From assembly GCA_035763805.1 (NCBI GenBank), contig DASUAL010000092.1, positions 26,386 to 90,385 on the forward strand: a stretch of DNA of 64,000 bases. Direction: 5' to 3'. The notes beneath the pieces were generated by a model that was given only the letters and a program-made list of their open reading frames with translations, made no database searches and had not been told where the DNA came from. Source of the stretch: Gemmatimonadales bacterium (lineage in GTDB: Bacteria > Gemmatimonadota > Gemmatimonadetes > Gemmatimonadales > GWC2-71-9). Numbering within the stretch: the first letter of the stretch is position 1; each line of letters begins with the position of its first letter. A program made the position numbers and the translations under genes. Positions 6,245-51,827 of the stretch are shown here, in pieces.

Positions 6245-6256
6245 GCCGCTCGGCAG

Positions 6257-8095: not shown

Positions 8096-10279
8096 CTACG
8101 CGGAACGCAGCTGGTCGGGCTTCACCGGCAGCTTGCGGATCCGCCTGCCGGTCGCTGCGAAGATCGCGTTGGTAACGGCGGGCATCACCGCCGACGTACC
8201 CGGCTCCCCGATGCCACCTGGCGCCTCCATGCTCTTGACGAGATGGACATCGATCGTCGGCGTCTCGTTGATGCGCAGCATGCGATAGTTGTTGAAGTTG
8301 GACTGCTCGACCCGGCCGCCCTTGATCGTGATCTCGCCGAACAGCGCGGCAGTGATCCCGAAGATGATCCCGCTCTCCATCTGCGCCCGGACCGTGTCCG
8401 GGTTCACGATGATGCCACAATCCACCGCGCAAACGACGCGATGGACGCGGACCTCCCCTTGCTTCGACACCGAGACTTCGGCGACCTGGGCGATGTAGCT
8501 CCCGAAGGCATGCAACAGTGAGATGCCGCGCCCGCTGCCCCGCGGCAGCGGCTTCCCCCAGTCTCCCTGCGCCGCGGCCAGCTCGAGCACCGCTCCGGCG
8601 CGCGGGGACTGGTCGAGGAGGGCGCGGCGATATTCGAACGGGTCCTGCTTCGCCGCCGCCGCCAGCTCGTCGATGAAGCTTTCGACCACGAAGATGTTGT
8701 GAGTGGGCCCGACGCCGCGCCAGAACGCGGTGGGAATACCGAGCGGCTCCTGGCGGACGTACTCCACTCGGATGCTGGGAAGGCTGTACGGCGGCTCCGC
8801 GGCGCCTTCCACAGCGTCGAGATCGAGGCGCTTGATCATCGCGCGGAGCCGGTGGACGCCGCCGGCCCGAATCACCCGCAGGTTCTTCGGGAACAGCTCG
8901 CTGGTCCAGCGTGCCTCGATCGACGAGCCGGCGATGCGGTGCGACCAGGCGACGGGCCTGCCGCGCGCGTCCAGGCCGGCCGCGATCCGGTCGTAATAGT
9001 ACGGCCGGTACATGTCGTGCTGGATGTCCTCTTCGCGGGTCCACACCACCTTCACCGGGCTCGCGACCTGTTGGGCGATCCGCACCGCCTGGATGATGAA
9101 ATCCACCTCCAGCCGTCGCCCGAATCCGCCGCCCAGGAGGTGGTTGTGCACCCGGACCCTGCTCCGCGGCAGACCGGTCAGCGTCGCCGCCGCCGTCTGG
9201 GCGAAGGTCGGCACCTGCGTCCCGACCCAGATGTCGCAGGCGTCCGGGCGAACGTGGACCGTACAGTTCGCCGGCTCCATCGTGGCGTGCGCGAGGAACG
9301 GCACTTCATAAACCGCCTCGAGCGTCTGGCCGGCGCTCGCCATGGCGTCGGCTACGTCGCCGTCGTCGCGCGCTACCACGCCCGACTTCTGGGACGCGGC
9401 TGCCAGCTGCTGCACGATGTCCGCGGTGCTGAGCTTCGCGTTCGGCCCCTCGTCCCACTTGATGTCGAGGGCGGCCAGGCCCCGCTGCGCGGCCCACATA
9501 TGGTCGGCGACGACCGCAACGGCGTCCTCCAGACGCACCAGCTGATGGACACCCGCGATCGCCCGTGCCTTCGTGTCGTCCACCGAGGCGAGCCTGCCGC
9601 CGAACACGGGACACGCCGCCACGGTGGCGACCTTCATCCCGGGGATCTGGACGTCGATGCCGTATTGCGCCGTGCCGTTGACTTTGGCGGGGGCGTCGAG
9701 GCGTTTGGCAGGCGTGCCGATCAGCCTAAAGTCCTTCGGCGCCTTGAGCGTGACGTTGCGCGGCGCGGGTAGTGTCGCCGCCTTGGCGACCAGGGCGCCG
9801 TACCCGAGGCTGCGGCCGGTCGGTCCATGGATTACCTCGCCGCGTGCGGCGCGGCAGGAGCCGGGCTCGACCTTCCAGGTCTGCGCCGCGGCCGCCACGA
9901 GCAGGGTGCGGGCGGTGGCGCCGGCGCGGCGCAACGGGTCCCAGTTGCCACGGACCGACGTCGAGGCACCCGTCTGCTGCACGCCGAACAGTGGGTCGGC
10001 GTACAGCTTGTCGTCGGGCGGCGCGTGCTCGAGATGGACCTGGCTGAGATCAACTTCCAGCTCCTCGGCCAGCAGCATGGGCATGGATGTGTACGTCCCC
10101 TGTCCCATTTCCACCTTGTGCATGACGAGGGTCACGCGACCGTCGTGGTCGATGCGGACGAACGCGTTGGGTGCAAACAGGTCATCCGGCTCGAGCGGAG
10201 GCAGGCGGAAGCCGAGCAACAGGCCGCCCCCGATGGCGGCGCTGGTCTCGAGGAAAGTCCGGCGGGAGACGACGTGCAT
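8096..10279 (-). CDS. Molybdopterin-dependent oxidoreductase large subunit (xanthine dehydrogenase family, IorB-like), Tat-exported
   Basis: 727 aa. Twin-arginine-type start 'MHVVSRRTFLETSAAIGGGLLLG'. 'HLLGGGFGRR', 'GVGPTHN', 'GGIGEPGTSAVMPAVTNAI' typical of aldehyde-oxidase/XDH Mo-binding subunits. Confidence 0.85.
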   Translation of the reverse strand: MHVVSRRTFLETSAAIGGGLLLGFRLPPLEPDDLFAPNAFVRIDHDGRVTLVMHKVEMGQGTYTSMPMLLAEELEVDLSQVHLEHAPPDDKLYADPLFGVQQTGASTSVRGNWDPLRRAGATARTLLVAAAAQTWKVEPGSCRAARGEVIHGPTGRSLGYGALVAKAATLPAPRNVTLKAPKDFRLIGTPAKRLDAPAKVNGTAQYGIDVQIPGMKVATVAACPVFGGRLASVDDTKARAIAGVHQLVRLEDAVAVVADHMWAAQRGLAALDIKWDEGPNAKLSTADIVQQLAAASQKSGVVARDDGDVADAMASAGQTLEAVYEVPFLAHATMEPANCTVHVRPDACDIWVGTQVPTFAQTAAATLTGLPRSRVRVHNHLLGGGFGRRLEVDFIIQAVRIAQQVASPVKVVWTREEDIQHDMYRPYYYDRIAAGLDARGRPVAWSHRIAGSSIEARWTSELFPKNLRVIRAGGVHRLRAMIKRLDLDAVEGAAEPPYSLPSIRVEYVRQEPLGIPTAFWRGVGPTHNIFVVESFIDELAAAAKQDPFEYRRALLDQSPRAGAVLELAAAQGDWGKPLPRGSGRGISLLHAFGSYIAQVAEVSVSKQGEVRVHRVVCAVDCGIIVNPDTVRAQMESGIIFGITAALFGEITIKGGRVEQSNFNNYRMLRINETPTIDVHLVKSMEAPGGIGEPGTSAVMPAVTNAIFAATGRRIRKLPVKPDQLRSA

Positions 10280-10281
10280 GG

Positions 10282-10743
10282 TCAGGCCCCCTTTGATAGC
10301 GCGGCCTGCTTAATCGCGGCGCGGATGCGCGGATAGGTGCCGCAGCGGCAGATGTTGCCCGCCATCCCCGCGTCGATGTCGGCGTCGGTGGGATGCGGCT
10401 TGCGCGCGAGCAGCGCGGCGGCGGCCATGATCTGACCGGACTGGCAGTAGCCGCACTGCACGACGTCGAGATCGAGCCAGGCTTGCTGCACGTTCCTGCC
10501 GGCGGCCGTCTCGCCGATGGCCTCGATCGTGGTGATGCTCTTTTCCGTGGCCGCGGCCACCGGCGTCACGCAGGAACGAATCGGTTGGCCGTCGAGGTGC
10601 ACCGTGCAGGCGCCGCACAGCGCGATCCCGCAGCCGAACTTGGTGCCCGTCAGGCCGATTACGTCGCGCAGCACCCAGAGCAGGGGCATGTCCGGGGGCA
10701 CGTCCACCGTGTGGGCCTGGCCGTTGACTCGCACTGTGACCAT
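10282..10743 (-). CDS. [2Fe-2S]-binding small subunit (IorA/CoxS-like)
   Basis: '[16 protein letters not shown]' and '[22 protein letters not shown]' cysteine motifs. Ends 3 nt before the large-subunit start. Confidence 0.85.
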
Positions 10744-10805
10744 GACGATGTCCCCCTGTCGTCATCAACAAGGAGCTTCACGTGCACATTCCCGTCAAGT
10801 GGGAT

Positions 10806-11498
10806 CTAGAAGGGGAAGATGATGCCCACATCCTTGAGCTTGCTGAACTCTCGGCCCGAGAACTCGTACAGCTGCGCCGGCCGGCCGCGCTCGGCTCGCC
10901 GCCCCTTCACCGGCTTCAAGATCCCGAGCAGCGCAAGCTTGCGCCGGAAGTTCCGCTTGTCGAGGGGACGACCGAGGATAGCCTCGTACACCCGCTGCAG
11001 CTCGGTGAGCGTGAAGTGCCGCGGCAGGAGCTGGAACCCCACGGTCGTGTACTCGAGCTTGTTGCGCAGGCGCTCGACCGCGTATTCGAGAATCCCTTCG
11101 TGGTCGAACGCGAGCGGAGGGTGCTTGGCGACGGGCCACCAGCGGGCCGCCCGCGCGTCGGTGCTGGCGACGAGCGGCGCCCGGTCGGAGGCGATCAGGG
11201 CGTAGTAGGCCACCGTCACGACCCGACCACGCGGGTCGCGGCCGGGGTCGCCGAAGGTAAAGAGCTGCTCCAGATAGACGTCGCGGACGCCGGTCTCTTC
11301 GGCGAGTTCGCGCAGCGCGGCGTGCTCGAGGCTCTCGCCCTCGCGAATGAAGCCGCCAGGCAGCGCCCAGCGCCCCTCGAACGGGGGCAGGCCGCGCTCG
11401 ATCAACAGCACCTGGAGCTGGTCCTCGCGCACCGTGAAGATGACCAGGTCCACCGTGACCTGGACGTCGGTGCGCGGCTCGCGCTTAGATGGCGGCAT
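10806..11498 (-). CDS. Nudix hydrolase with C-terminal winged-helix (NrtR-like regulator)
   Basis: Nudix box 'GGFIREGESLEHAALRELAEETGV'. C-terminal 'FTLTELQRVYEAILGRPLDKRNFRRKL' DNA-binding-like tail. Confidence 0.75.
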   Translation of the reverse strand: MPPSKREPRTDVQVTVDLVIFTVREDQLQVLLIERGLPPFEGRWALPGGFIREGESLEHAALRELAEETGVRDVYLEQLFTFGDPGRDPRGRVVTVAYYALIASDRAPLVASTDARAARWWPVAKHPPLAFDHEGILEYAVERLRNKLEYTTVGFQLLPRHFTLTELQRVYEAILGRPLDKRNFRRKLALLGILKPVKGRRAERGRPAQLYEFSGREFSKLKDVGIIFPF

Positions 11499-13515: not shown

Positions 13516-14322
13516 TCAGAACAGCTTCACCCCGCCCAGCGCCGCGCCGGCGTCCCGCCACCGCGCGGCGGGCTCCGTCGCGAGACAGCGGCTCACCAGC
13601 TCGCCGAGCCATGGGGGCACCGTGCGGGCCTCGTCGAGCGGCTCCGATTCCGGGGCGGGCGGCCGTCCCGTGAGCATCTCGTGCACGAGCACCCCCACGG
13701 CGAAGATATCGTCGCGCGGCCCGGGGGGAGCGCTGCCGTCCGAGCGACGCTCGGGCGCGACGTAGGCGGCGGCACACAGCGCGGCGGTCGCGACGCCCGG
13801 GGCCCGCGGGCCACCGCCCGCGAGCGAGCGCTGCACGGCATCCACCATCCCGGTGTCGGCCACCGCCGCCCGCCCCTCGGTGAGCAGCACGTTCTCCGGC
13901 TTCAAGTCGCCGTGGGCTACGTTGGCTCCATGGGCGTGGGCGAGCGCGGCCAGGATGTCCCGGAGGATGTCGACGGTCCCGCGCAGCGGGAGCTCGCCGT
14001 GCTTGAGCAGCCAGGCGCGCAGCGTGGTCCCGTCGACGAAGTGCCGAGTATGGTAGACGAACGCACCTGCCCGTCCCGCGCCGCGGGGCCGCACGAGGCG
14101 CTCGTGCCCGAGCCGGTCGGCGAGCAGGATGATCTCGCGCTCGAAGACGCCCGCGTCCACCGCCAGGGACAGCTCGGCCGGCAGCAGCTTCACTAGCAGC
14201 TCGGGACCACTGGGCAGCTCCTGCACGACGAACATACGACAGTCGCCGACCGGCCGGACCTCGCGCTCGACCCGGTAGATCGGGCCGAGGGCGGCCTCGA
14301 GCGCGCTGCGCAGATCGGACAC
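13516..14322 (-). CDS. Short Ser/Thr-protein-kinase-like protein with degenerate motifs
   Basis: 268 aa, kinase core only. 'HGDLKPENVLL' (HRD->HGD), 'VADTG' (DFG->DTG), 'YVAPER'. No GxGxxG loop. Confidence 0.6.
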   Translation of the reverse strand: MSDLRSALEAALGPIYRVEREVRPVGDCRMFVVQELPSGPELLVKLLPAELSLAVDAGVFEREIILLADRLGHERLVRPRGAGRAGAFVYHTRHFVDGTTLRAWLLKHGELPLRGTVDILRDILAALAHAHGANVAHGDLKPENVLLTEGRAAVADTGMVDAVQRSLAGGGPRAPGVATAALCAAAYVAPERRSDGSAPPGPRDDIFAVGVLVHEMLTGRPPAPESEPLDEARTVPPWLGELVSRCLATEPAARWRDAGAALGGVKLF

Positions 14323-17246: not shown

Positions 17247-19892
17247 CTACCTGAGGCCTTCCAGCGTCCAGATGTCCCCGCCCCGCGGCGTCGCCCGGTC
17301 GAACAGGACCCAACGACCGTCGGGAGACCAGACGGTGTAGTCGATCCGGATTTCCGGGTTCGGGAACTCGAAGACGCGCTGGGGAGCCTCCCCGCGCAGC
17401 GGATAAACCCACAGAACCTTGTGGTCCCGGACGTCCATGATGCGGGAGCGATCGGGGGAGAAGGACAGGTGGGCACCACTCGCGACGTCCGACAGGCGCT
17501 CGAGCCGCCCGGTCTCGATCGACACTCGATGGATCTGGATTCGGCCCGCCGGTTCCGCACGGAAGATCACCCAGCGCCCGTCCGCCGACCAGCGCATGAA
17601 GTGCCCGCCCACGCCGATGGACGTGAGCTTGCGTTGCCCCGAACCGTCCGCGTTCATCACCCAAACCTCGTGCCGGCCGTCGCGGTCGGAGTGGAACGCG
17701 ATGCGCGTCCCGTCCGGCGCGTAGAAGGGGTTGATGTCCGCTCCCGGCGCCTCGGTGAGGCGGGTGGGCGGCCCGCCGCCGGCGGCCACGGACCAGATGT
17801 CGCTGTGACCCCCGCGCGCCGAGAAGAACACGATCGTTCCGCCGTCGGGCGACCAGTTCGGCTGGTAGTCTCCGCCGGAGCCGGTCGTAACCTGGCGATC
17901 CGTGCCGTCGCCGAGCGAGCGCACCCAGATGTTCATCTCGCCCGCACGATCCGAGTTCAAGGCAATGCTGCGGCCGTCGGGCGACCAGGCGCCGCGGCTC
18001 TCGACGCGCGTGGTCCCGACGACCGGCTGGGGCTCGCCCGTCGCCCGTCCGGTGCTGGGATCGACCGGCAGGCGCCACAGGTCCGAGTCGTAGCCAAGGA
18101 TCGAAAAGGCCAGGCGCCGCCCCTCCGGATCGAGCGTGGCTTGGCCGTCGTCGCCGGCGCCCGTCGTGATCTGCTGCGCCGCCTCCACCGGGCGGCCATC
18201 GCGCCCGACGGGCAGCCGCCACAGGTTGAGCCCGCCGCCACGGAACGACGAGAAATAGACGAACGCCCTGTCGGGGGACCACACGGGATCCATGTCCAGC
18301 ACGTTGTCATCGGTGAGTCGGATCGTGGCGCGGGAGGCGACGTCGAGCACCACGATGTCGGACTTGCTCTGCTCGATGCGCCGGAACACGAGCTTCGTGC
18401 CGTCCGGGGACCAGCGCGGCGTCCCGTGCACGACGGCCTCCGAGCCTTCGGTCGAGACTTGCTGCGCGTTGTGACCGCTCGCGTCCGCGATCCAGACGCG
18501 GCGGGGTCCCGACCACCGCGCCGCGAAGGCCAGCCGGCGGCCGTCGGGCGAGTAGGCCGGATCGAACGCGTTGGCCACGATCTGCGTCTCCCGACCCGAC
18601 GCCAGGTCCAGCGTCCAGATGTCGCCCCCGTCCTGGTACCAGCCGCGGATGTCGGTGGGCTCGAGCTTGCCCCGCGCGAGGTTCGAGCGGACGAGCGCGA
18701 TCGTGCGCCCGTCGGAGGCCCAGGTGGGTTCGATCTCGTCGGCGGCGCCCCGGGTCAGCTGCCGCTCCACCCCGGTCGCGAGCGTCGTGAGGAAGAGCTT
18801 CTTGTAGCCGCCGGTCTCGGCGACGTACGCCAGGCTGCCGCCGTCGGGCGACCACGCGGGCCACTCCTCCACGCCGGCGCCGAAGGTGAGCTGCGCCAAC
18901 CGGCGCCCGAACCCCGAGGCCACGGCGCCGCCCGGAGACGCCATCCGGTCGGCGCCTTTTCCCGGCCCGGAGACGAGGAGCGCTCCGATGACGAGCACGG
19001 CGATAGCGGCCGCCGCGCCGAGCGCCAGGCGGGCGCGACGCCCCGGACTGCGCGCGGCCGTCGGGTCGAGCGCGAGCCGCTCGGCGAACTGGGCGGCGGT
19101 GAGGCGGGCCCCGGGCTCGCTCGTGAGCGCGCCACTCACTGTCTCGTCGACCTGCGGCGGGATCCCGTCGCGCACCGCAGAGACGCGCGGAGCGGGCTCG
19201 GTGAGCCGGCGGGTCAGGCTGGCCTGCGGCGTCGGTCCGCTGAAGGGCGGCTCCCCGGCGAGCATTTCGTACAGCACGCAACCGAGGGAGTAGACGTCGC
19301 TCCGCCCGTCCAGGTCGCGGTCCCCCAGCGCCTGCTCGGGGCTCATGTACGCCGGCGTCCCCATCACCAGGCCGGTCTCCGTGAGCCGGTCGACCCCCGC
19401 CACGCTCACGGCGTGGGCGATCCCGAAGTCGCTCACCACGGCGTGGCCGGCCTCGAGCAGGATGTTCTCCGGCTTGATGTCGCGGTGCACCACGCCCAGC
19501 CCGTGCGCGTAGGCGAGGGCATCCGCGACCTCGCGGGCGATGCGCGTCGCGTCCGCGACGGGGAGGCGTCGCTCACGCCCGAGCCGGCGCCTGAGGGACT
19601 CCCCCTCGACGTACGGCATCACATAGTAGAGGAGTCCACCCGCCGTGCCGGAGTCGATCAGCAGCAGGATGTTCGGGTGGCCGAGGCGCGCCGTGATTCG
19701 GACTTCACGCAGAAACCGCTCGGCACCGACCGCGGCGGCCAAGTGGGAGCGGAGAACTTTGATGGCGACTCTGCGGTCGTGCTTCAGGTCCCGCGCGAGG
19801 TACACGACCGCCATCCCGCCGGCGCCCAGATCGCCTTCGATGGCGTAGCGGCCGGCGAGGACGGACTTGAGCCGGTCCAGCTCCTCGGCCAC
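17247..19892 (-). CDS. Ser/Thr protein kinase with TM segment and TolB-like (PD40/WD40) beta-propeller repeats
   Basis: GTG start. 'GAGGMAVVYLA..VAIKVL', 'HRDIKPENILL', 'DFGIA', 'YMSPEQ'. TM 'LALGAAAAIAVLVIGALLV'. Many 'WSPDG'/'YSPDG' repeats. Confidence 0.9.
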   Translation of the reverse strand: MAEELDRLKSVLAGRYAIEGDLGAGGMAVVYLARDLKHDRRVAIKVLRSHLAAAVGAERFLREVRITARLGHPNILLLIDSGTAGGLLYYVMPYVEGESLRRRLGRERRLPVADATRIAREVADALAYAHGLGVVHRDIKPENILLEAGHAVVSDFGIAHAVSVAGVDRLTETGLVMGTPAYMSPEQALGDRDLDGRSDVYSLGCVLYEMLAGEPPFSGPTPQASLTRRLTEPAPRVSAVRDGIPPQVDETVSGALTSEPGARLTAAQFAERLALDPTAARSPGRRARLALGAAAAIAVLVIGALLVSGPGKGADRMASPGGAVASGFGRRLAQLTFGAGVEEWPAWSPDGGSLAYVAETGGYKKLFLTTLATGVERQLTRGAADEIEPTWASDGRTIALVRSNLARGKLEPTDIRGWYQDGGDIWTLDLASGRETQIVANAFDPAYSPDGRRLAFAARWSGPRRVWIADASGHNAQQVSTEGSEAVVHGTPRWSPDGTKLVFRRIEQSKSDIVVLDVASRATIRLTDDNVLDMDPVWSPDRAFVYFSSFRGGGLNLWRLPVGRDGRPVEAAQQITTGAGDDGQATLDPEGRRLAFSILGYDSDLWRLPVDPSTGRATGEPQPVVGTTRVESRGAWSPDGRSIALNSDRAGEMNIWVRSLGDGTDRQVTTGSGGDYQPNWSPDGGTIVFFSARGGHSDIWSVAAGGGPPTRLTEAPGADINPFYAPDGTRIAFHSDRDGRHEVWVMNADGSGQRKLTSIGVGGHFMRWSADGRWVIFRAEPAGRIQIHRVSIETGRLERLSDVASGAHLSFSPDRSRIMDVRDHKVLWVYPLRGEAPQRVFEFPNPEIRIDYTVWSPDGRWVLFDRATPRGGDIWTLEGLR

Positions 19893-42594: not shown

Positions 42595-42924
42595 ATGGAG
42601 CTGGTCCCGCTTCCCCGGAGGCTCGCCATGCTCGGCACTACCCTGCTCCTGCTCCTGGCACTTTTCGGAGTTTTTGCGTTCATCCTGTTGAAGGTCGAGG
42701 GGCTCGCGCTGTTCGCTCCGAAGAGCACGGGCGCCATCGCAAACTCCGCCGCGGCATACTGCACGGGCGAGTGCCGGTTGACCGACGGCCGCTGTCCGAT
42801 GACAGGCTCTCGAGAGCGCGCTTTGAACTGCCCGCTCTGGAAGTTTGTCGAGGCCGACGTCCCGACGATGCTGTACGGGAATCCGTTCGCCCACCTGCAG
42901 GCGACGGGCAGGACGGCAGCCTAG
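42595..42924 (+). CDS. Small membrane-anchored Cys-containing protein (hypothetical)
   Basis: TM 'MLGTTLLLLLALFGVFAFILL', then 'YCTGECRLTDGRCPMTG..NCPLW'. Converges on the hemerythrin gene (4-nt overlap). Confidence 0.4.
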   Translation: MELVPLPRRLAMLGTTLLLLLALFGVFAFILLKVEGLALFAPKSTGAIANSAAAYCTGECRLTDGRCPMTGSRERALNCPLWKFVEADVPTMLYGNPFAHLQATGRTAA

Positions 42925-43385
42925 GGGTGGAGCCGCTGAGCCACCGCGGCTAGACCTTTGGCCCCGAGCAGCGCCCGGGCCGCTGGAAACAGCACCTCGT
43001 TCTCCCGGTCGATATGGGCTCGCAGGAGTTCCACGATCGCGAGCGCGATTGCGGCGACCACGTGCTCCGACCCCGGCCCGTCGAGCGCGCGACCCAGGCG
43101 CTCCTCGAGCGCGCGGAGCTCGCGGTGCTCCTGGACGAACACCGCGCTGGGCGCCAGATCTTCGAGGAGGGGGAAGAGGGCAGCTTCCTCGTTCTGATTG
43201 TGCGCTCGCACGGCAGTCGTGAGAATCGTATGGACCTCGCGCATCGTGTCGAGGTGCGATTGCGGTGCCGCCCCGCCCTCGAGCGCCAGCGCGGCTACCT
43301 CGAGCCTCCGGAGCGCGCCGAGCGCCTCCTCGTGCTCCTCTTCGAACCTGCGCAACGGGTCGCCGGTCACGGTGTCACTACCCAT
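42921..43385 (-). CDS. Hemerythrin-like (HHE cation-binding) domain protein
   Basis: 154 aa. 'FEEEHEEA', 'AVRAHNQNEEAALFP', 'VQEHREL', 'LRAHIDRENEVLFP'. Confidence 0.75.
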   Translation of the reverse strand: MGSDTVTGDPLRRFEEEHEEALGALRRLEVAALALEGGAAPQSHLDTMREVHTILTTAVRAHNQNEEAALFPLLEDLAPSAVFVQEHRELRALEERLGRALDGPGSEHVVAAIALAIVELLRAHIDRENEVLFPAARALLGAKGLAAVAQRLHP

Positions 43386-44389
43386 CTGACCCCCTGCCCG
43401 CGCCGCAGCCGGTCCAGCCCCTCGTTGATGGCCGCGAGCGGCACGGTGCCGCTCACGATCGGGTCGAGCTTGATCTTCCCTGCGCGCACGAGCGCGAGAA
43501 TCTCGGGGTACTCCCCCGCGCCGCATCCCAGGCTGCCCGCGATCTCCAGCTCGTAGTACATCAGCCGCGCGGCCGACAGCTTCACCGGCTCGTGCGAGTA
43601 GCCGATCACGCAGAGCCGGCCACCGCGCCGCAGCAGGCCGAACGCGAGCTCGATCGTGCCGGGGGTGCCGATCACCTCGAACGCCACGTCCACCCCGCCG
43701 TCCGTGAGCTTGCGGACCGCCTTGTCCACCCGCTCCACGGCGCGCGGATTGACCGTCTCCGCGGCGCCGAGGGCGCCGGCGAGCTGCAGGCGCTCGTCGT
43801 TCACGTCCACCGCGACCACGCGCGCGCCGGCAGCGGCGGCACACTGGATCACGTTGAGGCCCACGCCACCGCACCCCACCACGGCCACGGTGTCTCCCAT
43901 CCGAACCCGCCCGCGGTGCTTGACCGCGTGATAGGGCGTCGAGATCGCGTCCGCGATCACGCACGCACGGTCGAGCGGGATGTCGCCGGGAACGGGCACG
44001 AGGTCCTTGGATGGCACGGCGATGTATTCGGCGTAGGCGCCGTCCACGTTGTTGCCCAGCATCACGAGGCTGCTGCACAGGTTCTCGCGCCCCTGGCGGC
44101 AGAACGCGCACCGCCCGCACGACAGCACCGCGGGGATGAGTACTCGGTCGCCCACCGCGCAGCCGTTCCCGCCAGGGCCGAGCGCCGCGACGGTGCCTGC
44201 CGCCTCGTGTCCGAGGATGAGGGGCGGCGGCTTGAACGTCTCGACGCCGTGGTCGATGTAGTGGAGGTCGGTGTGGCACAGCCCGCAGCCGACGACCTTG
44301 ATCAGGACTTCCCCCACCGCGAGCGTGGGGAGCGGCACGTCGGCGAGCTCGAGCGGGCGGTGGGGCCCGCGGAACAGCGCGGCCTTCAT
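43367..44389 (-). CDS. Zinc-dependent alcohol dehydrogenase (MDR family); Had-like candidate
   Basis: 'VVGCGLCHTDLH', 'GHEAAG', 'CGRCAFCRQGRENLC', 'VAVVGCGGVG'. Confidence 0.85.
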   Translation of the reverse strand: MKAALFRGPHRPLELADVPLPTLAVGEVLIKVVGCGLCHTDLHYIDHGVETFKPPPLILGHEAAGTVAALGPGGNGCAVGDRVLIPAVLSCGRCAFCRQGRENLCSSLVMLGNNVDGAYAEYIAVPSKDLVPVPGDIPLDRACVIADAISTPYHAVKHRGRVRMGDTVAVVGCGGVGLNVIQCAAAAGARVVAVDVNDERLQLAGALGAAETVNPRAVERVDKAVRKLTDGGVDVAFEVIGTPGTIELAFGLLRRGGRLCVIGYSHEPVKLSAARLMYYELEIAGSLGCGAGEYPEILALVRAGKIKLDPIVSGTVPLAAINEGLDRLRRGQGVRWVVTP

Positions 44390-45225
44390 GCGGCTCCTTC
44401 ACCCGTCGCGACGGGGGCGGTGGCCGCCTCGGCCGCGAGCCGCCGCAGGCGGCGTTGGCCCAGCAACGCGGCGCCGAACGCCGCCGTGAACTGCACGAGC
44501 TCACCCGGCGGCACGTTGACTGCCGCCCCGAGCGCGCTCCGGACCACATCCGCCATGCGCTCGAAGCGCAGGATGCCCCCGATGAGCGTGTACTCCGGCT
44601 CCATGCGCACCCGTTTCATGAGCTGCACCGAACGGTCCACCAGCGAGACGATCGCCCCGTGCATGATGTCGGCGGGGGCCGCTCCCTCGGAGAGCTGGTT
44701 GATCACCTCCGACTCGGCGAACACGGCGCATACGCCGGAGATCGGCACGGGGTTCTTCGATGTTGCGACGAGCGGCCCAATCTCCGCCGTCGTGTAGCCC
44801 AGATAGCGGGCCGTCTTCTCGAGGAACGCGCCGGTGCCAGCCGCGCACTTGTCGTTCAGGCGGAAGCTCTGGACCTTCCCGTCGGCGCCCAGCCGGCTCG
44901 CCTTCATCGTGTGGCCGCCCACGTCGAGCACCGTGCGCGTGCCGGGGAACAGGTGAGTCGCGCCGCGGCCGGCGGCGGTCAGGTCGGTGACGGCGACGTC
45001 GCCGATCGCCGTCTGGTGGCGACCGAAGCCGGTCGTGACCGTATAGGCCACGTCGGAGCGCGCGATCCCGGCCGCATCGAGCGCGCGCGCGAACGCCCGC
45101 TCGGCGGCCTGGGAGAGCTTGAACCCGGTCGACTCCATGGCCTGGCCCAAGATCGTCCCGTCAGCCGCGACCACCACGGCCTTCGTGTAAGTGGAGCCGA
45201 TGTCGATCCCGGCGGTGCGGGTCAT
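44386..45225 (-). CDS. BcrAD/BadFG-type ATPase subunit (benzoyl-CoA reductase alpha/delta or dehydratase-activase family), copy 2
   Basis: ATGA overlap with copy 1. '[13 protein letters not shown]', 'LDVGGHTMK', 'NDKCAAGTG', '[11 protein letters not shown]'. Confidence 0.8.
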
Positions 45226-46040
45226 GCGCGCTCCCGGGCGGGTCCGGCCGGCGCGCGGCCGGCCGCGATGCGGTCGAGGGCGAACAGGGCCGCCCCGATC
45301 GCCCCGATGAAGTGCGACTCGTCGCTCACGTTGACGGTGAGGCCGAGCCGCCGGTTGAGGGTCTCGACCATGGCGCGGTTCTTCGTCACACCGCCGGTGA
45401 ACGTGACCTCCTGCTCGATGCCGACCCGGCGGAGCAGCCCGATCGAGCGCGCGGCGATCGACTCGTGGACGCCCAGCAGGATGTCCTCGATCTTCTTGCC
45501 CTTGCCGAGCCACGACAGCACCTCCGACTCGGCGAACACCGTGCACGTGGTGCTGATCTTCACGGCGCGCTCGCCCCGCAGCGCCGTCGGCCCGAGCTCG
45601 GCGAGGGGGAGCTCGAGCGCCACCGCGGCCGCGCCGAGGAACCGACCCGTGCCGGCCGCGCACTTGTCGTTCATGCAGAAGTCCACGATCTCCCCGGTCG
45701 GCGCCACGCGGATCGCCTTCGTGTCCTGCCCGCCCATGTCGAGCACCGTGCGTGTGCGCGGGAACAGGTGCACGGCCCCGCGCGCATGGCAGCTGATCTC
45801 GGTGACCTGCGCGTTGCCGAACGTCACCTTGTAACGGCCGTACCCGGTTCCCACGACGAACTCGACCTCTTCCTCGCGCAGGTCGCCGCTCGCGAGCGCC
45901 TCGCGGAACGCCGCGTCGGCCGCCCGCATCACGTTGGCCCCGGTGTCGGCGAGCGAGCGGCCCACGATCCGCCGGGCCTCGTCGACGACGATCGCTTTCG
46001 TCTGCGTGGAACCGACGTCCACGCCCGCCGCGTACGCCAT
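45222..46040 (-). CDS. BcrAD/BadFG-type ATPase subunit, copy 1
   Basis: '[14 protein letters not shown]', 'LDMGGQDTK', 'NDKCAAGTG', '[11 protein letters not shown]'. Confidence 0.8.
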
Positions 46041-46049
46041 GCGTGCCTC

Positions 46050-47345
46050 CTACGACGCGGTCGCCTGGTGACGCCGCGCCGCCAGCCCCTCGAAGAACGC
46101 GTCGATGCGGTTCTTCATCTGCGCCTCCGACACCACGCGCCGGTCCATCATATCCGACTCGACGAACAGACTGGGCACGTCGCGCAGCGCCATCACCGCC
46201 CGCCGCGTGTCGGCGAGCCCCGTCGACACCGTGCGGCAGCTCTTGATGGGGTGGTACACGACCCCGTCCGCAGCGTGGGTGTCGATCATCTCGGCCAGCG
46301 CCTCCGTCTGGAAGAACATGCTGTCCATCGCGTGACGCACGCCGAGCAGCACGCCCTCGGCCAGACTCTCGAGCGGGCGCGCGAGGTCGTAGGCGAACCC
46401 GAGATTCGCCCCGCCCGACGCGAACCGCAGGTACGTCGAGTTCACGAACACGCCGCCCCAGTCGGTGAACAGCTCGCTGAAGCGGCGGAAGATGGGATAG
46501 CACGGCACGCCGACGAAGATGAGACGCCACTGCTCCTCGATGGCGGTCCCGATGCCGTGCTCGGCCTTGTACGCCATCTCGTCGACCAGGTCACGGAAGA
46601 ACGCCGCGCCCTCGGGCGTGCCCCGGAACCCGTTCGCCACGCCGAGGTAGATCGTGCCGTCCGAGAGCGCGTTGAAGACCGCGGGCCGGCTGCGGTTGAG
46701 CTCGAGCACGCGCTGCCACCCGGCGCTGAGCCCATTGGCGTGGCCCAGGTGCTCGCGCAGCCGGTCGACGTCGAAGCGCCGCCCCGACACCCGCTCGCAC
46801 AAGGCGATCAGCTCGCCGAGCTGCGCCTCCACGTAGCGCCGGTCCAGCTCGAAGTCGTCGCTGCCGCGCGGACTCGCGAGCCCCGCTCCCCGCGAGCCGG
46901 GCACGTCGAGCGTGAACACCGGCACCCCGTACATCCGCTCCCAGATCTCCCCCCACTTGATGTAGGTGTTGCAGGCATTGGTGCAGATCGCGAGCGCCGG
47001 CCTGGGGATCTTCCCCATCGGGTGGGCGCCACCGCGCAGCTGCGTAGCGACGTCGGCCTTCACGTACCCGCAGATGTCCGGGGAGTAGCCGTAACTCTCG
47101 GCCTCGTTCAGGTACTCGTGCGCCACGCGCCGCACGGCGGACTGCAGCGAATTGATCTCCGGGAACACGATGGGGAAATCGAACACCCGCAACAGCTCCG
47201 CGAGGCTGCCCATCACGAAGACGTAGGCGGCGCCGCGACCCTGCTCGGCGGCACTGGAGAGGCCCTGGAACCAGTCGCGGAACAGCTGCGCTCCCGCGGC
47301 GTTGCCGCGTCCCACGACGCTCCCATCCGTCACCGAACCGTTCAT
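46050..47345 (-). CDS. Benzoyl-CoA reductase / 2-hydroxyacyl-CoA dehydratase family subunit (BcrB/BadE/BzdO-like)
   Basis: 431 aa. 'DICGYVKAD', 'TNACNTYIKW', 'VYHPIKSCRTVS', 'ESDMMDRRV' as in HgdB/BcrB-family proteins as I recall them. Confidence 0.75.
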   Translation of the reverse strand: MNGSVTDGSVVGRGNAAGAQLFRDWFQGLSSAAEQGRGAAYVFVMGSLAELLRVFDFPIVFPEINSLQSAVRRVAHEYLNEAESYGYSPDICGYVKADVATQLRGGAHPMGKIPRPALAICTNACNTYIKWGEIWERMYGVPVFTLDVPGSRGAGLASPRGSDDFELDRRYVEAQLGELIALCERVSGRRFDVDRLREHLGHANGLSAGWQRVLELNRSRPAVFNALSDGTIYLGVANGFRGTPEGAAFFRDLVDEMAYKAEHGIGTAIEEQWRLIFVGVPCYPIFRRFSELFTDWGGVFVNSTYLRFASGGANLGFAYDLARPLESLAEGVLLGVRHAMDSMFFQTEALAEMIDTHAADGVVYHPIKSCRTVSTGLADTRRAVMALRDVPSLFVESDMMDRRVVSEAQMKNRIDAFFEGLAARRHQATAS

Positions 47346-47352
47346 GGTCGCC

Positions 47353-48543
47353 TCAATCGAACAGCAGGTTCTCGACGAACGTTTCGAGCTGGATCTCGAG
47401 CTGATCGAAGCTCGTCATGTTCTCCTCGAACTCGCTCACGAAGTAGGGGATCCCGCGTTGGTCGAGGGCCCGGGTGTGCACCACCAGCTCCTCCAGGCCC
47501 GGCTCGCACATCTTGGCCGACATGAGGATCGCCGCCTGCGCCCGGGCGACGTCCAGGCGCTCGAGCAGCATCCTGTCCTTCGGCTTGCGGAGGTCATGCT
47601 GCACGGGGCTGTGCGCCGAGTGGTCCACGTAGGCCCGCGCGAGACCGAGCAGCGGGTCACCCGAGACGGGGACGTCGTCCGTGATCCACCGCATGCCGAT
47701 GAGGAGGTCGTCGTCCACCACGTAGCACGAGCGGGCGATGGCCCGAAGCAGATCGAGCGGGGGCTGCTCGCAGAAGCCGCCTTCCAGGATGACCCGGATC
47801 TTGTCGTGGCGCGGCGCGGAACGGCCCTCGAGGAGCGGCAACACGGCGCGCAGCAGGTCGTTGTGCTCTTCGCGGGGGATGAGCCCTCCCAGCGCCACGA
47901 GCACGTACGCCTCGTCCGCCGCCACGAGCCACGGGCGGTCGCGCTTCAGGGCGTACAGGCGGCGCAGCAAGCCGCGGTTCTCGTTGAAGACGACGATCGA
48001 GCGCCGCAGGTCGTCGTCCGTGACCGACCGGCCCGCGACGTCCTCGAGAGCCCGCCGCAGCCGGTCGTACTCGTCGCGCAGGTAGCGCACCGCCGCTCCC
48101 GAGTTCGGGTTCTGCGGCAGGTACAGGATCCGGCACGGATAGGAGACGTTGCGGCCCCACACGGCGGCGAGGTTGCGCGCCGCGTCGCAGATCGGGTGCG
48201 TCACGAAGAGGTCGAGGTCCACTCGCCCCGCGAGTGCCAGCTCGAGCGACGTCTTGATGATCGAGCAGAGGTAGGACCCGAAGCGCGAGTCCGCCTGCGT
48301 GGGCTCGACCGGCGCGCCGCGCACCTTGAAGGGCAGCAGCCCGGCGGCGTGGGCGATCTCCTCGGGGAAATACACCTGGAAGTGGCCGACGACCTTCCCG
48401 CCCCCGTCCCGCCAGCGCTTCACCGTGGGGAACTCGGCATCCTCCACGAGCTCGCGACAGCGGGAGAGGATCTCCGAAAGCGGCTGGCCGCGCCATTCGG
48501 CGAACAGCGGCTCGGCGATGCGCTCGACGTTCGCGGCGCTCAT
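47353..48543 (-). CDS. Benzoyl-CoA reductase / 2-hydroxyacyl-CoA dehydratase family subunit (BcrC/BadD/BzdN-like)
   Basis: ATG 48543 forms an ATGA overlap with the hydratase stop. '[13 protein letters not shown]', 'SYLCSIIK', 'HPICDAARN', 'MSAKMCEPG'. Confidence 0.75.
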
Positions 48544-49298
48544 CGGTCCGCCCATGCGGGTGAGCGTTTCTCGACGAATGCGAGCAGCCCCTCGAGCGCG
48601 TCCTGGGTCGTCATCACGCTATGCAGGTACAGTTCCCCCCGCTCCCGCAGCCCGGCGGCGCTCGCCTCCGCTTCGCCTCCCCTCAGCGCGCGCTTCGCGA
48701 GCCGCAGAGTGGCGGCGGAATGCCGGGCGATCCGGCCCGCCACGGCGAGCGTCGCCTGCGCCAGCTGGTCGTCGGGAACCACCCGGCGCACGAGCCCCAC
48801 CCGCGCCGCCTCCGCCGCAGTGAGCGGATCGCCGCCGTACACGAGCTCGGCCGCGACCCCGCGCCCGACGCGCGTGGGGAGCAGGGCGCACGCCGCGGGC
48901 GGGATGACGCCGAGCAGGATCTCGGGCTGGCCGAAAACGGCGCCGTCGCCTGCGACGATGATGTCGGCGGCCTGCACCAGCTCGAACCCGCCGCCGAGGC
49001 AACGGCCTTGCACGGCCGCGATCACGGGTAGCGGAAAGGCGTCGAGGGCGGCGATCGTATCCATGAACTCGGGGATCAGCCCGGTGTGCTCGGGGGGTAA
49101 GTGCTCCCGCACGTCGGCGCCGGCGGAGAAATGCTTCCCCGCGGCCGAGAGCAGCAGCACCCGCAGCCCGGGCTCGACGGCGAGCGCGGCGAGCCCGGCC
49201 CGGAAGCGCGCGAGCACGTCCCGGGTGAGGATGTTGACCGGCGGATGGTCGAGCGTGAGCCGGCCGATGGCTCCGTCGAGCGCGCGGGTGACGGTCAT
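48540..49298 (-). CDS. Enoyl-CoA hydratase/isomerase (crotonase); Dch-like candidate
   Basis: '[11 protein letters not shown]', '[15 protein letters not shown]', '[16 protein letters not shown]'. Confidence 0.85.
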
Positions 49299-49302
49299 GG
49301 CG

Positions 49303-50025
49303 TCAGGCGGGTGCCCCCGCCCCGTTGACCAGCTGGCCGCCGTCCACGGGGAGGACGACGCCCGTGACGAATCCCGCGGCCTCGGTGCACAGGAACCGGA
49401 CGACGGCGGCGACGTCGCTCGCCGCGCCGAACCGGCCGAGCGGGGTGCGCGCGAGGGCCCGGGCCCGGATGCCCGCGGGGAGGTCCCGCGTCATCGCCGT
49501 GTCGATGAACCCGGGTGCCACGACGTTCACCGTCACGCCGTCGCGCGCCAGCTCGAGCGCGAGTGAGCGCGCGAGCCCCCCGAGGCCCGCTTTCGCCGCG
49601 GCGTAGTTCGTCTGGCCGAACGAGCCGCGCAGGCCGTTGATCGAGCTGATGAACACGAGGCGGCCCTGGCGCGACCGCCGCAGCGCCGGCGCCGCGGCGC
49701 GGGCGGTGTTGAACGCCCCCGTCAGGTTCACCGCCAGCACGTCGTCCCAGTCGGCGTCGGACATCTTCCAGCTCACCTGGTCCCGCGTGATCCCCGCCGC
49801 GCACACGACCCAGTCTACGCCCCCCCGCTCCTCGCCAAGTCGCTCCATTGCCCGGCTCATGGCCCCCCGGTCCGCGACGTCCGCTTGCTCGACGAGACTC
49901 GCCGCTCCCGCTCCCTCGGGAAACGCCAGGTCGATCCCGGCCACCCACGCGTCGCCCGCGAGCGCCTCGACGACGGCGCGCCCGATGCCCCGCCCCGCGC
50001 CGGTTACGAGAGCGGTGCGCCGCAT
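49303..50025 (-). CDS. Short-chain dehydrogenase/reductase (FabG-like)
   Basis: 'ALVTGAGRGIGRA', 'SSINGLRGSFGQTNYAAAKAG' (YxxxK), 'NVVAPGFIDT'. Confidence 0.85.
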   Translation of the reverse strand: MRRTALVTGAGRGIGRAVVEALAGDAWVAGIDLAFPEGAGAASLVEQADVADRGAMSRAMERLGEERGGVDWVVCAAGITRDQVSWKMSDADWDDVLAVNLTGAFNTARAAAPALRRSRQGRLVFISSINGLRGSFGQTNYAAAKAGLGGLARSLALELARDGVTVNVVAPGFIDTAMTRDLPAGIRARALARTPLGRFGAASDVAAVVRFLCTEAAGFVTGVVLPVDGGQLVNGAGAPA

Positions 50026-51062
50026 GCGCCGCAGAACCGATGATCCACCGGCAGCCCCGTCGCGCCGCAGCGGCCGCAGGACTTGACCGCCGCGCCCCAG
50101 GGCGCCTCAGCGGACAAACCCCGCGCGGCGCGCTCGCGCAGCAGGGCGTAGCGCGGCGCGCGCTTCTCCACGAAGGCCTGCATCCCCTCGACCGGCTCCC
50201 AGCACGCGTAGTGGAGCGCCAGCCAGTCCTGCGCGTGCCGCACAGTCGAGTGCCACACGAAATCCTTGAGGACGTTGGTCTGCTGCTTGGTATAGCGCGC
50301 GCACTCGGGGAACGACGCGAGCACGCGGCGGGCGACGTCGTCCACGAGCGCGTCGAGCCGCGACAGGTCCACGCAGAACCCGTCCTCCCCGCGCTGCGCC
50401 TTGCGGATGTCGTCGGGGGTCGCGGCGTCCACCCAAGTGTCCCCCCGCCGCACGCTGGGAACCACCCAGTTCGCGAGACCCCAAGCGAGGGCCTGCGCCG
50501 CCGGAATCGGCTCGTTGAGGTAGAGGATCTCACGCGCCCGCTTGTCGCCCACGACCAGCGGGAGCCATTGCGTCGCGCCACCGCACGCGACCGAACCGAC
50601 GTGCGTCCCCACCTGCTTCAGGTAGGCGTGCTGGGCCATCACCGTGAGATCGCAGGCGAGCTGGCTCTCGTTGCCGCCGCCCACCGCCATCCCGTTGATG
50701 CGCGCAATGACCGGCTTGCCGCTGTTGAGGATGCTCTCGATGTAGGCGCGGAACAGCGCCATGTACTTCCAGTAGTCGCGCGGGGTGGCGACGTAGGTAC
50801 TGGCGTACTCCTTGACGTCGCCGCCGGTACAGAAGGCGCGGTCGCCCGCTCCGGTGAGCACGATCACGCCCACGGCGTCGTCGAAGCTCGCATCGCGGAA
50901 GGCGGCGGCGAGCTCCTCGAGCGCGGGCGTGGAGTAGGCGTTGTAGTGCTGGGGCCGGTTGATCGTGATCCGCGCGACGCCGTCGGCCTTCGCGTACAGC
51001 ACCTCGCGGAAGGCGAACGATTCGGCGGACCGGCTGTCGAACGCTCTCGTGGTCATGGTCAC
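50004..51062 (-). CDS. Long crotonase-family protein (ring-hydrolase Oah/BamA- or BadI/MenB-like) with C-terminal zinc ribbon
   Basis: GTGA overlap with tetR. 'ITINRPQHYNAY', 'VLTGAGDRAFCTGGDV', 'INGMAVGGGNE'. Tail 'CGRCGATGLPVDHRFCGACGAPL'. Confidence 0.7.
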   Translation of the reverse strand: MTMTTRAFDSRSAESFAFREVLYAKADGVARITINRPQHYNAYSTPALEELAAAFRDASFDDAVGVIVLTGAGDRAFCTGGDVKEYASTYVATPRDYWKYMALFRAYIESILNSGKPVIARINGMAVGGGNESQLACDLTVMAQHAYLKQVGTHVGSVACGGATQWLPLVVGDKRAREILYLNEPIPAAQALAWGLANWVVPSVRRGDTWVDAATPDDIRKAQRGEDGFCVDLSRLDALVDDVARRVLASFPECARYTKQQTNVLKDFVWHSTVRHAQDWLALHYACWEPVEGMQAFVEKRAPRYALLRERAARGLSAEAPWGAAVKSCGRCGATGLPVDHRFCGACGAPLS

Positions 51063-51673
51063 CGACGGGTGAGGCCGCCGACCAGATGGGCGGCGAATGC
51101 AGCCCCGAGCTGCGGAGCGCGTAGCGAACCGTCGGGGCGATACCAGCGCGCGATCCAGTTGATGGCGCCGAGGATGGCGAAGACCGCCGTCTTGGGGTTC
51201 ACGCTGCGGAACTCCCCGGCTTTCACTGCGCGGGCGACGAGGCGCCGCAACTCCCGTTCATAGCGGTCACGCAGCGCGACGATCTCGGCCTGGTGCGCCG
51301 GGGTGAGCGCCGTGACTTCGAACGCGAGCGGTGACCCCTCGAGCGTGTCGGTCATCACGCGCACGTGCTCCCGCACCAGGTACGCCAGCCGGTCGGCGGG
51401 ACCGTCGTAGCGGGCGCGCGCCTGTTCGAGTAGGCGCGCGACTTCCACCAGGGACTCGCGGTGGCACGCGTACAGAATCGACTCCTTGTCGGGGAAGTAG
51501 TGGTACAGGGCGGTCTTGTGCACGCGGAGCCGTACGGCGATCTGGTCGAGGGTGGTGGCGTGGTACCCCTTCTCGCGAAACGCCCGCAGGGCGGAGTGCA
51601 GGATCTCGGCTCGCCGCCGGCGCCGCTTTTCCCGGATCCGGGGGGACAGCGTTGCCTGCGCGCCATCGGGCAT
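51059..51673 (-). CDS. TetR/AcrR-family transcriptional regulator
   Basis: HTH 'KGYHATTLDQIAVRLRVHKTALYHYFPDKESIL'. Confidence 0.85.
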   Translation of the reverse strand: MPDGAQATLSPRIREKRRRRRAEILHSALRAFREKGYHATTLDQIAVRLRVHKTALYHYFPDKESILYACHRESLVEVARLLEQARARYDGPADRLAYLVREHVRVMTDTLEGSPLAFEVTALTPAHQAEIVALRDRYERELRRLVARAVKAGEFRSVNPKTAVFAILGAINWIARWYRPDGSLRAPQLGAAFAAHLVGGLTRR

Positions 51674-51827
51674 CCTGGGCCTCCGAGCGGAGAAATGGGG
51701 TTGACCGGCCGTTCAAAAATTCAACGTCCGTTGAGAGAATGCAGGCTCGCGCGTGAAGGGAGGATGAAACGAGGATGAGGGGCTGCCCCACCACCGCCCC
51801 AGGCGTTGAGCTCTCGATGCGCGGGAT

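Follow-up and report, generated by a model that had tools for sequence, protein, structure and literature searches.

A predicted MBR-type class I benzoyl-CoA reductase operon with its own candidate ring-opening enzymes in an uncultured Gemmatimonadales bacterium

The stretch of DNA analysed here, hereafter the window, comprises 64,000 nucleotides (nt) of contig DASUAL010000092.1 from a metagenome-assembled genome (MAG) of a Gemmatimonadales bacterium, and carries ten co-directional open reading frames (ORFs) on its minus strand at 42921-51673 (Table 1). The four central genes encode what we predict to be an MBR-type benzoyl-CoA reductase of class I, and they are surrounded by genes for a TetR-family regulator, a long and a short crotonase, a short-chain dehydrogenase/reductase (SDR), a zinc-dependent alcohol dehydrogenase (Zn-ADH) and a hemerythrin-domain protein. 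All ten ORFs, with their order, sizes and Pfam labels, match the TetR-headed operon described in the original prediction, a reading of this DNA from its letters. The tight packing claimed there is also seen: the TetR/long crotonase, short crotonase/N, Q/P and P/ADH junctions are 4-nt overlaps, and the others are gaps of 4-9 nt apart from one 7-nt and one 22-nt overlap. Pfam domain E-values across the ten proteins range from 1e-14 to 1e-63, and the GC content at third codon positions (GC3) of 0.87-0.96 in all ten genes, in a window of 70% GC, indicates that they are coding. The flanking genes encode a C92 peptidase-like protein, a DUF5916 protein, Ogt and a GGDEF response regulator, all of unrelated function, and the gene cluster is therefore self-contained. 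A scan of the operon for sigma-70 promoters and terminators gave chance-level results only.

Table 1. Features of the reductase operon and its upstream region, in window coordinates.
Feature	Coordinates	Strand	Length	Description
Putative TetR operator	51701..51735	-		Palindrome TTGAACGGCCGGTCAA (51716..51701) and permuted palindrome CTCAACGGACGTTGAA (51735..51720)
TetR-family regulator	51059..51673	-	204 aa	First operon gene; Pfam TetR_N and TetR_C_24
Long crotonase (Oah-like)	50004..51062	-	352 aa	MenB/BadI/Oah group; Pfam ECH_1; C-terminal four-Cys zinc ribbon
FabG-like SDR	49303..50025	-	240 aa	Pfam adh_short; accessory gene
Short crotonase (Dch-like)	48540..49298	-	252 aa	Pfam ECH_1
MbdN-like (BcrC-like, gamma) subunit, N	47353..48543	-	396 aa	Pfam HGD-D
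MbdO-like (BcrB-like, beta) subunit, O	46050..47345	-	431 aa	Pfam HGD-D; predicted to bind substrate and catalytic cluster
MbdQ-like (alpha) ATPase subunit, Q	45222..46040	-	272 aa	Pfam BcrAD_BadFG
MbdP-like (delta) ATPase subunit, P	44386..45225	-	279 aa	Pfam BcrAD_BadFG
Zn-dependent alcohol dehydrogenase (Had-like)	43367..44389	-	340 aa	Pfam ADH_N/ADH_zinc_N
Hemerythrin-domain protein	42921..43373	-	150 aa	Last operon gene; Pfam Hemerythrin, E 1.3e-14; 7-nt overlap with the ADH stop

Class I reductases have been divided into BCR, MBR and BZD types (Fuchs et al. 2025, PMC11971306). We placed the window enzyme among them using scores on curated hidden Markov models (HMMs), chains of the Protein Data Bank (PDB) and a neighbour-joining (NJ) tree of N subunits rooted on HadC. 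The reference that stands out is the structurally solved 3-methylbenzoyl-CoA reductase of Thauera chlorobenzoica (MbdONQP; PDB 9G87/9GAI), in which each of the four adjacent gene products, two HGD-D subunits and two different BcrAD_BadFG ATPases, finds its best PDB match: N in MbdN (9G87_B; 552.6 bits, E 7e-165, 61% identity), O in MbdO (9G87_A; 527 bits, 53%), Q in MbdQ (9GAI_D; 409 bits, 69%) and P in MbdP (9GAI_C; 288 bits, 54%), the last scoring only 198 bits with MbdQ. HAD, Bzd and DCCP chains reach at most 217 bits with any of the four. In fact, HadC and HadB score 135 and 100 bits with N and O, and BzdN and BzdO 98 and 89 bits. The orthology with MbdONQP of T. chlorobenzoica 3CB-1, and with the mbd system of Azoarcus/Aromatoleum sp. 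CIB, is one to one, at 53-69% identity, and the Fe-S ligand cysteines are kept.

The inference of a class I dearomatising reductase is thereby supported, and two outcomes that would have spoken against it did not materialise. The scores above set the large subunits apart from the 2-hydroxyacyl-CoA dehydratases, and the ATPases are not recent duplicates of an activase: their cross-match to the non-cognate Mbd ATPase is 38-41% identity, each is nearer its own Mbd orthologue than the other Mbd ATPase, and the duplication is therefore old. What did not stand is the closer resemblance to Thauera BcrCBAD or Azoarcus BzdNOPQ. Relative to the BcrCBAD equivalog models (TIGR02263/02260/02259/02261) the scores and cut-offs are 258.6/421, 203.2/487, 207.1/578 and 139/313, so that all four are missed, and the Bzd-type models (TIGR03190-03192) are missed as well (100 vs 454, 94 vs 449 and 181 vs 380). 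BcrC and BcrB are nonetheless the best NCBIfam matches of N and O (N scores 160 on HadC and 100 on BzdN), and BcrA and BcrD the best subunit-specific matches of the ATPases, for which a generic activase domain model scores higher. The T. chlorobenzoica Mbd subunits score 221/230/222/119 on the canonical Bcr models and the window proteins, in the same order, 203/259/207/139; given these near-identical sub-threshold values, the window enzyme and the MBR enzyme are equally far from BcrCBAD.

The NJ tree recovers a combined MBR-type group in 200 of 200 bootstraps against HadC and a Bzd-type paralogue, with a proteobacterial subclade at 154/200 and weak monophyly of the MAG sequences (78/200). Among 50%-identity cluster representatives, 144 proteins match the O subunit at E<=1e-30; the ten best of full length all stay below the BcrB cut-off and bear uninformative names. 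A tblastn search of plasmids found no MBR-type cluster, the matches being only Bzd-, DCCP- or HAD-like at no more than 29% identity. The gene order N-O-Q-P of the window corresponds to the C-B-A-D (gamma-beta-alpha-delta) order of canonical BcrCBAD/BadDEFG, with which the window enzyme shares the predicted chemistry, and not to the O-N-Q-P order of T. chlorobenzoica. Its alpha subunit is short, with some 200 residues at the start of the BcrA model unmatched, and that of T. chlorobenzoica likewise has no BcrA N-terminal extension. By these comparisons the window enzyme is predicted to be an MBR-type class I benzoyl-CoA reductase, orthologous to MbdN/O/Q/P.

Careful analysis of the alignments reveals that the residues expected to hold the iron-sulfur clusters are conserved. 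Both ATPases carry NDKCAAGTG and a Cys just ahead of VFAESE (C-x-VFAESE), the pair to which the original prediction had drawn attention, and in the HgdC activator (1HUX) their aligned counterparts are Cys127 and Cys166, which we take to be the ligands of its bridging [4Fe-4S] cluster. This, together with the superfamily fold, is what the window enzyme has in common with HadBC/HadI and HgdAB/HgdC. In the O subunit, Cys92, Cys125 and Cys370 align with Cys95, Cys128 and Cys380 of BzdO, and Tyr94 and Tyr305 with its Tyr97 and Tyr298, all five residues being invariant in 66 orthologues; in BzdO these are the catalytic [4Fe-4S] cluster's ligands and the thioester-binding tyrosines, respectively (PMC11971306). 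The window enzyme thus shares with BzdNOPQ (PDB 8S02) its family, its three catalytic cysteines and its thioester-binding tyrosines, while its large subunits remain far closer to MbdN and MbdO (527-553 bits) than to BzdN and BzdO (89-98 bits). Six N-subunit cysteines (93, 119, 137, 258, 273 and 346) are invariant across five aligned sequences, namely the window protein, three of its close relatives and MbdN of T. chlorobenzoica; of the six, only C93, C119 and C346 find aligned cysteines in HadC and BzdN. A double-cubane [8Fe-9S] cluster, which takes a six-Cys site in Bzd-type N subunits, was considered for this subunit and is not predicted, because just these three BzdN cysteine positions are kept.

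Relatives of the enzyme occur in at least 362 species genomes among the 600 pattern matches listed (one genome per GTDB species), and the best 80 were surveyed for synteny. These share 68-87% identity, are all from MAGs without any cultured organism, and belong to Gemmatimonadota, Acidobacteriota, Chloroflexota, Eisenbacteria, Binatia and Neomarinimicrobiota. Two conserved layouts emerge. Type A, that of the window, runs TetR, long crotonase, (SDR), short crotonase, N, O, Q, P, Zn-ADH, (hemerythrin), the genes in brackets being variably present, and its trio of short crotonase, Zn-ADH and long crotonase accompanies the reductase also in Chloroflexota, Thermoanaerobaculia, Terriglobia and Blastocatellia loci. 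Type B runs TetR, Had, Oah, SDR, a thiolase paired with a zinc-ribbon/OB-fold protein of the ChsH2 type, short crotonase, N, O, Q, P, and further downstream has genes for a conserved small protein, an HMGL-like enzyme and an oxidoreductase of the 2-oxoacid:ferredoxin kind. It is found in sister Gemmatimonadota, with a 70-75% identical reductase and the same short crotonase, and its Had and Oah exceed the equivalog cut-offs (482/566 bits).

Several features of the related loci deserve description in their own right. In two of them, L026 (2713-9804; Gemmatimonadota chromosome CP070815.1) and L016 (2833-7200), the MBR-type NOQP genes have a true Bzd-type reductase directly upstream. The Bzd-type subunits score above all NCBIfam cut-offs (BzdN 490, BzdO 681 and BzdQ 426 bits), and after them come an ORF of 93 aa and a GltD-like Fe-S flavoprotein of 855 aa. 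The presence of a Bzd-type reductase beside MBR-type genes marks these as bona fide benzoyl-CoA loci in Gemmatimonadota, and the arrangement mirrors the pairing of bzd and mbd in Azoarcus sp. CIB. The SCP-x-type thiolase and the ChsH2-like zinc-ribbon/OB-fold protein stand between the SDR and the short crotonase in L019 (7570-9180) and in six to eight other type-B loci, a pairing that to our understanding resembles the BbsAB or the steroid side-chain thiolase/aldolase systems. A small protein of ~100-110 aa with the motif GWE..R...Y.ELGFE...C..C and without a Pfam match directly follows the MbdP-type delta subunit in 17 MAG loci (e.g. L050, 8505-8831) and in the Thauera-type locus L082 (5397-5717), on a contig like that of T. 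chlorobenzoica, with ~33% identity between the two sets; it is absent from the window operon.

The enzymes around the reductase resemble those of benzoyl-CoA ring opening at some distance. For the short crotonase, the top NCBIfam match is cyclohexa-1,5-dienecarbonyl-CoA hydratase (Dch; 203 bits, cut-off 292.5), with 41% identity to MbdW. It retains both crotonase catalytic Glu positions (GGGFE and GQPE) and lies directly upstream of N in type-A and type-B loci alike, and we propose that it acts as a dienoyl-CoA hydratase. The Zn-ADH matches Had best (253.8 bits, cut-off 338.65) and is 40% identical to MbdX; it has the catalytic zinc (C..H, GHE), structural zinc (CxxCxxCx7C) and GxGxxG motifs. 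Its orthologues (54-90% identity) follow the P subunit in type-A, Chloroflexota and Acidobacteriota loci, and in type A the gene is kept wherever the contig reaches that far; a role as 6-hydroxycyclohexenoyl-CoA dehydrogenase is proposed.

The long crotonase scores 200.6 bits on Oah (cut-off 464.45), 175 on BadI and 168 on MenB, with 31% identity to MbdY of T. chlorobenzoica. Its alignment with true Oah is collinear, and the two have Glu132 in common (the Glu of GG(G/A)xE, which is Val in MenB). With the low score and two Oah-specific insertions missing, it falls outside Oah proper, and it ends in a zinc-ribbon tail, CxxC-x11-12-CGxCG, that is shared by 24 of the 25 window-type orthologues across three phyla and is seen in none of the true Oah proteins. 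We propose that it serves as the ring-opening hydratase/hydrolase. As for the SDR, its top NCBIfam matches are FabG and acetoacetyl-CoA reductase, and five type-A loci that are otherwise identical (L004, L014, L023, L031 and L033) lack it; its proposed role is that of a 3-hydroxyacyl-CoA dehydrogenase after ring opening.

We note that MbdW, MbdX and MbdY of T. chlorobenzoica score 378, 541 and 568 bits on the Dch, Had and Oah models, above every cut-off, unlike the window trio, which is 31-41% identical to them and whose long crotonase bears the zinc ribbon. Because the equivalog cut-offs are missed, the assignment of the trio draws on best-hit similarity and parallel gene content. Of the Dch-, Had- and Oah-like labels given earlier, the best-match part therefore holds and the orthology does not: by this evidence the three are related to the known ring-opening enzymes as paralogues and not as orthologues, and the linked Dch/Had/Oah-orthologous MbdW/X/Y of the mbd pathway have no counterpart in the operon. 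The general composition is still that of mbd clusters, in which a TetR-family regulator is likewise linked to hydratase, Zn-ADH and long-crotonase genes. Unlike the mbd system, the window operon has no ligase, transporter, thiolase or small protein after the delta subunit, and has a hemerythrin gene in addition.

The regulator also follows a course of its own. Its best solved relatives are 3VPR and 3DCF (104-106 bits), with MbdR (4UDS) only the 18th PDB match at 41.5 bits, and its orthologues (64-91% identity) head the gene cluster in about 30 loci. It is probably an acyl-/aryl-CoA-responsive repressor. The putative operator ends 27 nt upstream of the TetR ATG and is the only match in the window to TTGAAC-N4-GTTCAA with up to two mismatches. 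Of 29 related loci, covering both layouts, 23 have the same palindrome no more than 160 nt upstream of their TetR orthologue, a strong enrichment given that the 1.24 Mb as a whole contain 65 matches. The regulator would bind at the palindrome and be released by an acyl- or aryl-CoA. The MbdR operator, by comparison, is ATAC-N10-GTAT (PMC4424350), and no such sequence occurs in the region upstream of the window TetR; neither an MbdR-type repressor nor its operator is thus found here. In other phyla, PaaX-like regulators occupy the place of TetR.

The hemerythrin-domain protein has a weak NCBIfam match to the Fe-S repair protein RIC, and homologues follow the Had-like gene in at least eight type-A loci (L002, L007, L009, L013, L015, L032, L038 and L058). 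What makes a role in O2/NO sensing, or in protection of an oxygen-labile Fe-S enzyme, plausible is this weak similarity to RIC. An independent linkage of hemerythrin and reductase is seen in L084, where a hemerythrin gene (6255-6749; 164 aa) lies ~850 nt upstream of a Rhodospirillales MBR-type cluster with the order O-N-Q-P, which also has AMP-ligase, Zn-ADH, long-crotonase, short-crotonase and SDR genes.

Taken together, we consider it likely that the operon specifies an ATP-dependent, dearomatising aryl-CoA reductase of the MBR type with its own ring-opening enzymes. The mechanism proposed below draws on homology with MbdONQP of T. chlorobenzoica and with BzdNO. The orthology of the four subunits, the conserved cluster ligands, the synteny and the operator motif are observed; we infer the substrate, the product, the order of the downstream steps, the inducer and the role of the hemerythrin. 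The MbdQ/MbdP-like heterodimer would accept an electron from a low-potential donor, not encoded here, onto the [4Fe-4S] cluster that bridges its subunits, and the hydrolysis of one ATP per electron would drive the electron into the MbdN/MbdO-like dimer. There, the Cys3-ligated [4Fe-4S] cluster of the O subunit would reduce benzoyl-CoA, or a close analogue, to cyclohexa-1,5-diene-1-carbonyl-CoA. The short crotonase would then hydrate the diene, the Zn-ADH would oxidise the 6-hydroxyl group, and the zinc-ribbon long crotonase would add water and cleave the ring to a 3-hydroxypimeloyl-CoA-type product, which the SDR could oxidise further. TetR would repress the operon at TTGAAC-N4-GTTCAA until an acyl- or aryl-CoA inducer binds, and the hemerythrin may sense or buffer O2/NO for the oxygen-labile Fe-S enzyme.

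Several observations weigh against this reading. All three downstream enzymes fall below the Dch, Had and Oah equivalog cut-offs. Around Cys125 of the O subunit, every MAG sequence reads NACNTY where T. chlorobenzoica MbdO reads NYCNTF, and the position of the BzdO proton-relay residue His131, a further difference from BzdNOPQ, is Tyr in the window protein. No aryl-CoA ligase or ferredoxin is encoded in the operon, and no donor-regenerating oxidoreductase in the window. The NJ tree of N subunits contains no canonical BcrCBAD, BadDEFG or MbrCBAD sequences, and the comparison set likewise lacks HgdAB, FldBC and LcdAB. Finally, the group is known from MAGs alone, and its activities are read from sequence.

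Among the alternatives, the one that survives best retains the enzyme class and changes the substrate, to a substituted benzoyl-CoA (methyl-, hydroxy-, methoxy- or halo-) whose substituted diene the trio would handle. We regard this as possible, if tentative. The closest characterised relative is, after all, a methylbenzoyl-CoA reductase, and both the sub-threshold trio and the near-cluster residues that differ from MbdO would fit such a change. Dedicated copies of Dch, Had and Oah accompany known MBR/Mbr systems, such as MbdW/X/Y, or Dch-2/Had-2/Oah-2 in Proteobacteria (PMC4268860). The dedicated MbdW/X/Y of T. chlorobenzoica still pass the standard cut-offs, however, and substitution alone therefore does not explain the divergence of the window trio. 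The two Gemmatimonadota loci with Bzd-type beside MBR-type genes are in keeping with a division of labour such as that of Azoarcus sp. CIB, which uses bzd for benzoate and mbd for 3-methylbenzoate (PMC4424350). In type B, by contrast, the same reductase type is joined to canonical Had and Oah, and we found no MbdO alignment column that discriminates type A from type B. The simplest reading is that one kind of dienoyl-CoA product is handled by either trio. The lack of a discriminating column weakens the case for the trio reflecting a different reductase product. In addition, the T. chlorobenzoica enzyme is said, in work by Tiedt and colleagues from 2018, to reduce benzoyl-CoA too.

An unlikely alternative is a Rhodopseudomonas-type route, in which reduction would continue to cyclohex-1-ene-1-carboxyl-CoA, the short crotonase would be a BadK-like hydratase, the SDR would be BadH-like and the long crotonase a BadI-like ring hydrolase, leaving the Zn-ADH a side role. 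Exactly these three kinds of enzyme, a crotonase, an SDR and one MenB/BadI-like crotonase, are present in the operon, and the BadI and MenB scores of the last are close to its Oah score. The pattern of gene retention runs the other way: the SDR is dispensable in the five otherwise identical loci named above and the Zn-ADH is retained, and a BadK/BadH/BadI-type route is for this reason disfavoured. Moreover, the long crotonase is collinear with Oah through the C-terminal region and has the GG(G/A)xE Glu in place of the MenB Val, and the best match of the short crotonase is Dch.

It is quite improbable that a BCR/HAD-family reductase acts here on a non-aromatic or non-benzoyl substrate, for instance an alicyclic or bicyclic enoyl-CoA like tetrahydronaphthoyl-CoA, or in another low-potential reduction, with the flanking genes as a modified beta-oxidation set. 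An enzyme of that kind would be compatible with the absence of a linked aryl-CoA ligase, with downstream enzymes that are not Dch/Had/Oah orthologues and with members that are all from uncultured bacteria, yet the 53-69% identity is to a demonstrated aryl-CoA reductase, and sister loci link the same reductase to canonical Had and Oah and to a Bzd-type reductase. We give almost no credence to a 2-hydroxyacyl-CoA dehydratase with its activator, the reading of the public PGAP annotation: both large subunits do belong to Pfam HGD-D and NCBI names the N subunit "2-hydroxyacyl-CoA dehydratase" (HEU5261979.1, 100% identical; the only operon protein checked), but N and O are about 28% identical to HadC, reach no more than 126 bits on the HadB and 160 bits on the HadC equivalog (cut-offs 750 and 700) and favour MbdN/MbdO over HadC/HadB (553/527 vs 135/100 bits), the two different ATPases are orthologous to MbdQ and MbdP where a dehydratase would have one homodimeric activase, and the context is one of ring-opening enzymes, not of amino-acid fermentation.

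The preferred reading, an MBR-type reductase with its own ring-opening enzymes, adds a predicted member to this type. The reductase itself is mechanistically close to the known enzymes; the variant parts are the paralogous trio with its zinc-ribbon hydrolase, the separate TetR and operator, and the hemerythrin. Two lower branches of benzoyl-CoA degradation are known, the Thauera-type Dch/Had/Oah and the Rhodopseudomonas-type BadK/H/I. That the MBR-type reductase with the zinc-ribbon hydrolase, Zn-ADH and crotonase constitutes a third, hitherto undescribed branch, adapted to mostly oxic life and with the hemerythrin protecting or gating the reductase, is a speculation that we consider doubtful; if it were true, Gemmatimonadota, Acidobacteriota and Chloroflexota would be major overlooked anaerobic or microaerobic degraders of aromatics in soil and groundwater.

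The gatekeepers of aromatic degradation without oxygen are the class I benzoyl-CoA reductases, which, to our knowledge, have been studied in a few Proteobacteria only. The survey indicates that a close relative of the solved MBR enzyme is widespread among uncultured members of Gemmatimonadota, Acidobacteriota and Chloroflexota. Provided that the enzyme is active, lineages commonly regarded as aerobic heterotrophs would share in the anoxic turnover of lignin-derived and pollutant aromatics, which makes the operon relevant to ecology. It is also tractable by experiment: the trio, the zinc-ribbon hydrolase and the linked hemerythrin are clonable targets for the question of how an extremely oxygen-sensitive enzyme is run in oxygen-exposed habitats, and the conserved operator offers a handle on the inducer and thereby on the natural substrate. 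The earlier remark that such an operon would be of note in a lineage regarded as aerobic applies to this Gemmatimonadales MAG, although class I genes in such MAGs had been noted before: at KEGG level they were recorded in Chloroflexota, Acidobacteriota, KSB1 and one Gemmatimonadota MAG, the last being called "rarely reported" (PMC11704145). In the searchable literature we found no subtyping of these MAG class I genes and no description of the operon features.

As to the supply of substrate and electrons, neither a ferredoxin nor an aryl-CoA ligase is found in the operon, as originally stated, or in its flanks, and the ferredoxin motif CxxCxxCxxxCP does not occur in the whole 64-kb window. The sole AMP-ligase of the window (62-1621; 519 aa) matches generic acyl-CoA or malonyl-CoA synthetase models best. 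It was considered as the pathway ligase and rejected: on the benzoate-CoA ligase model its score is 214, with the cut-off at 375, and at a distance of 41 kb it has no evident link to the operon. Downstream of type-B clusters, an indolepyruvate/2-oxoacid:ferredoxin oxidoreductase (a 577-aa TPP/Fer4 protein and a 189-aa POR gamma protein) is encoded in L019 (18439-20745), L022, L026, L029 and L066, and is a candidate source of low-potential electrons in those loci. The window has no counterpart of it.

Elsewhere in the window, a 109-aa ORF on the plus strand (42595-42924) converges on the end of the operon; it has a coding-like GC3 of 0.84, a hydrophobic N-terminus and no Pfam match. A two-subunit molybdenum hydroxylase (8096-11498; 727-aa MoCoBD and 153-aa [2Fe-2S] proteins), with no FAD subunit detected beside it, adjoins a Nudix/NrtR-like regulator. 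Two genes for Ser/Thr protein kinases (13516-14322 and 17247-19892), of which one includes fused PD40/beta-propeller repeats (881 aa), seem to have no relation to the operon.

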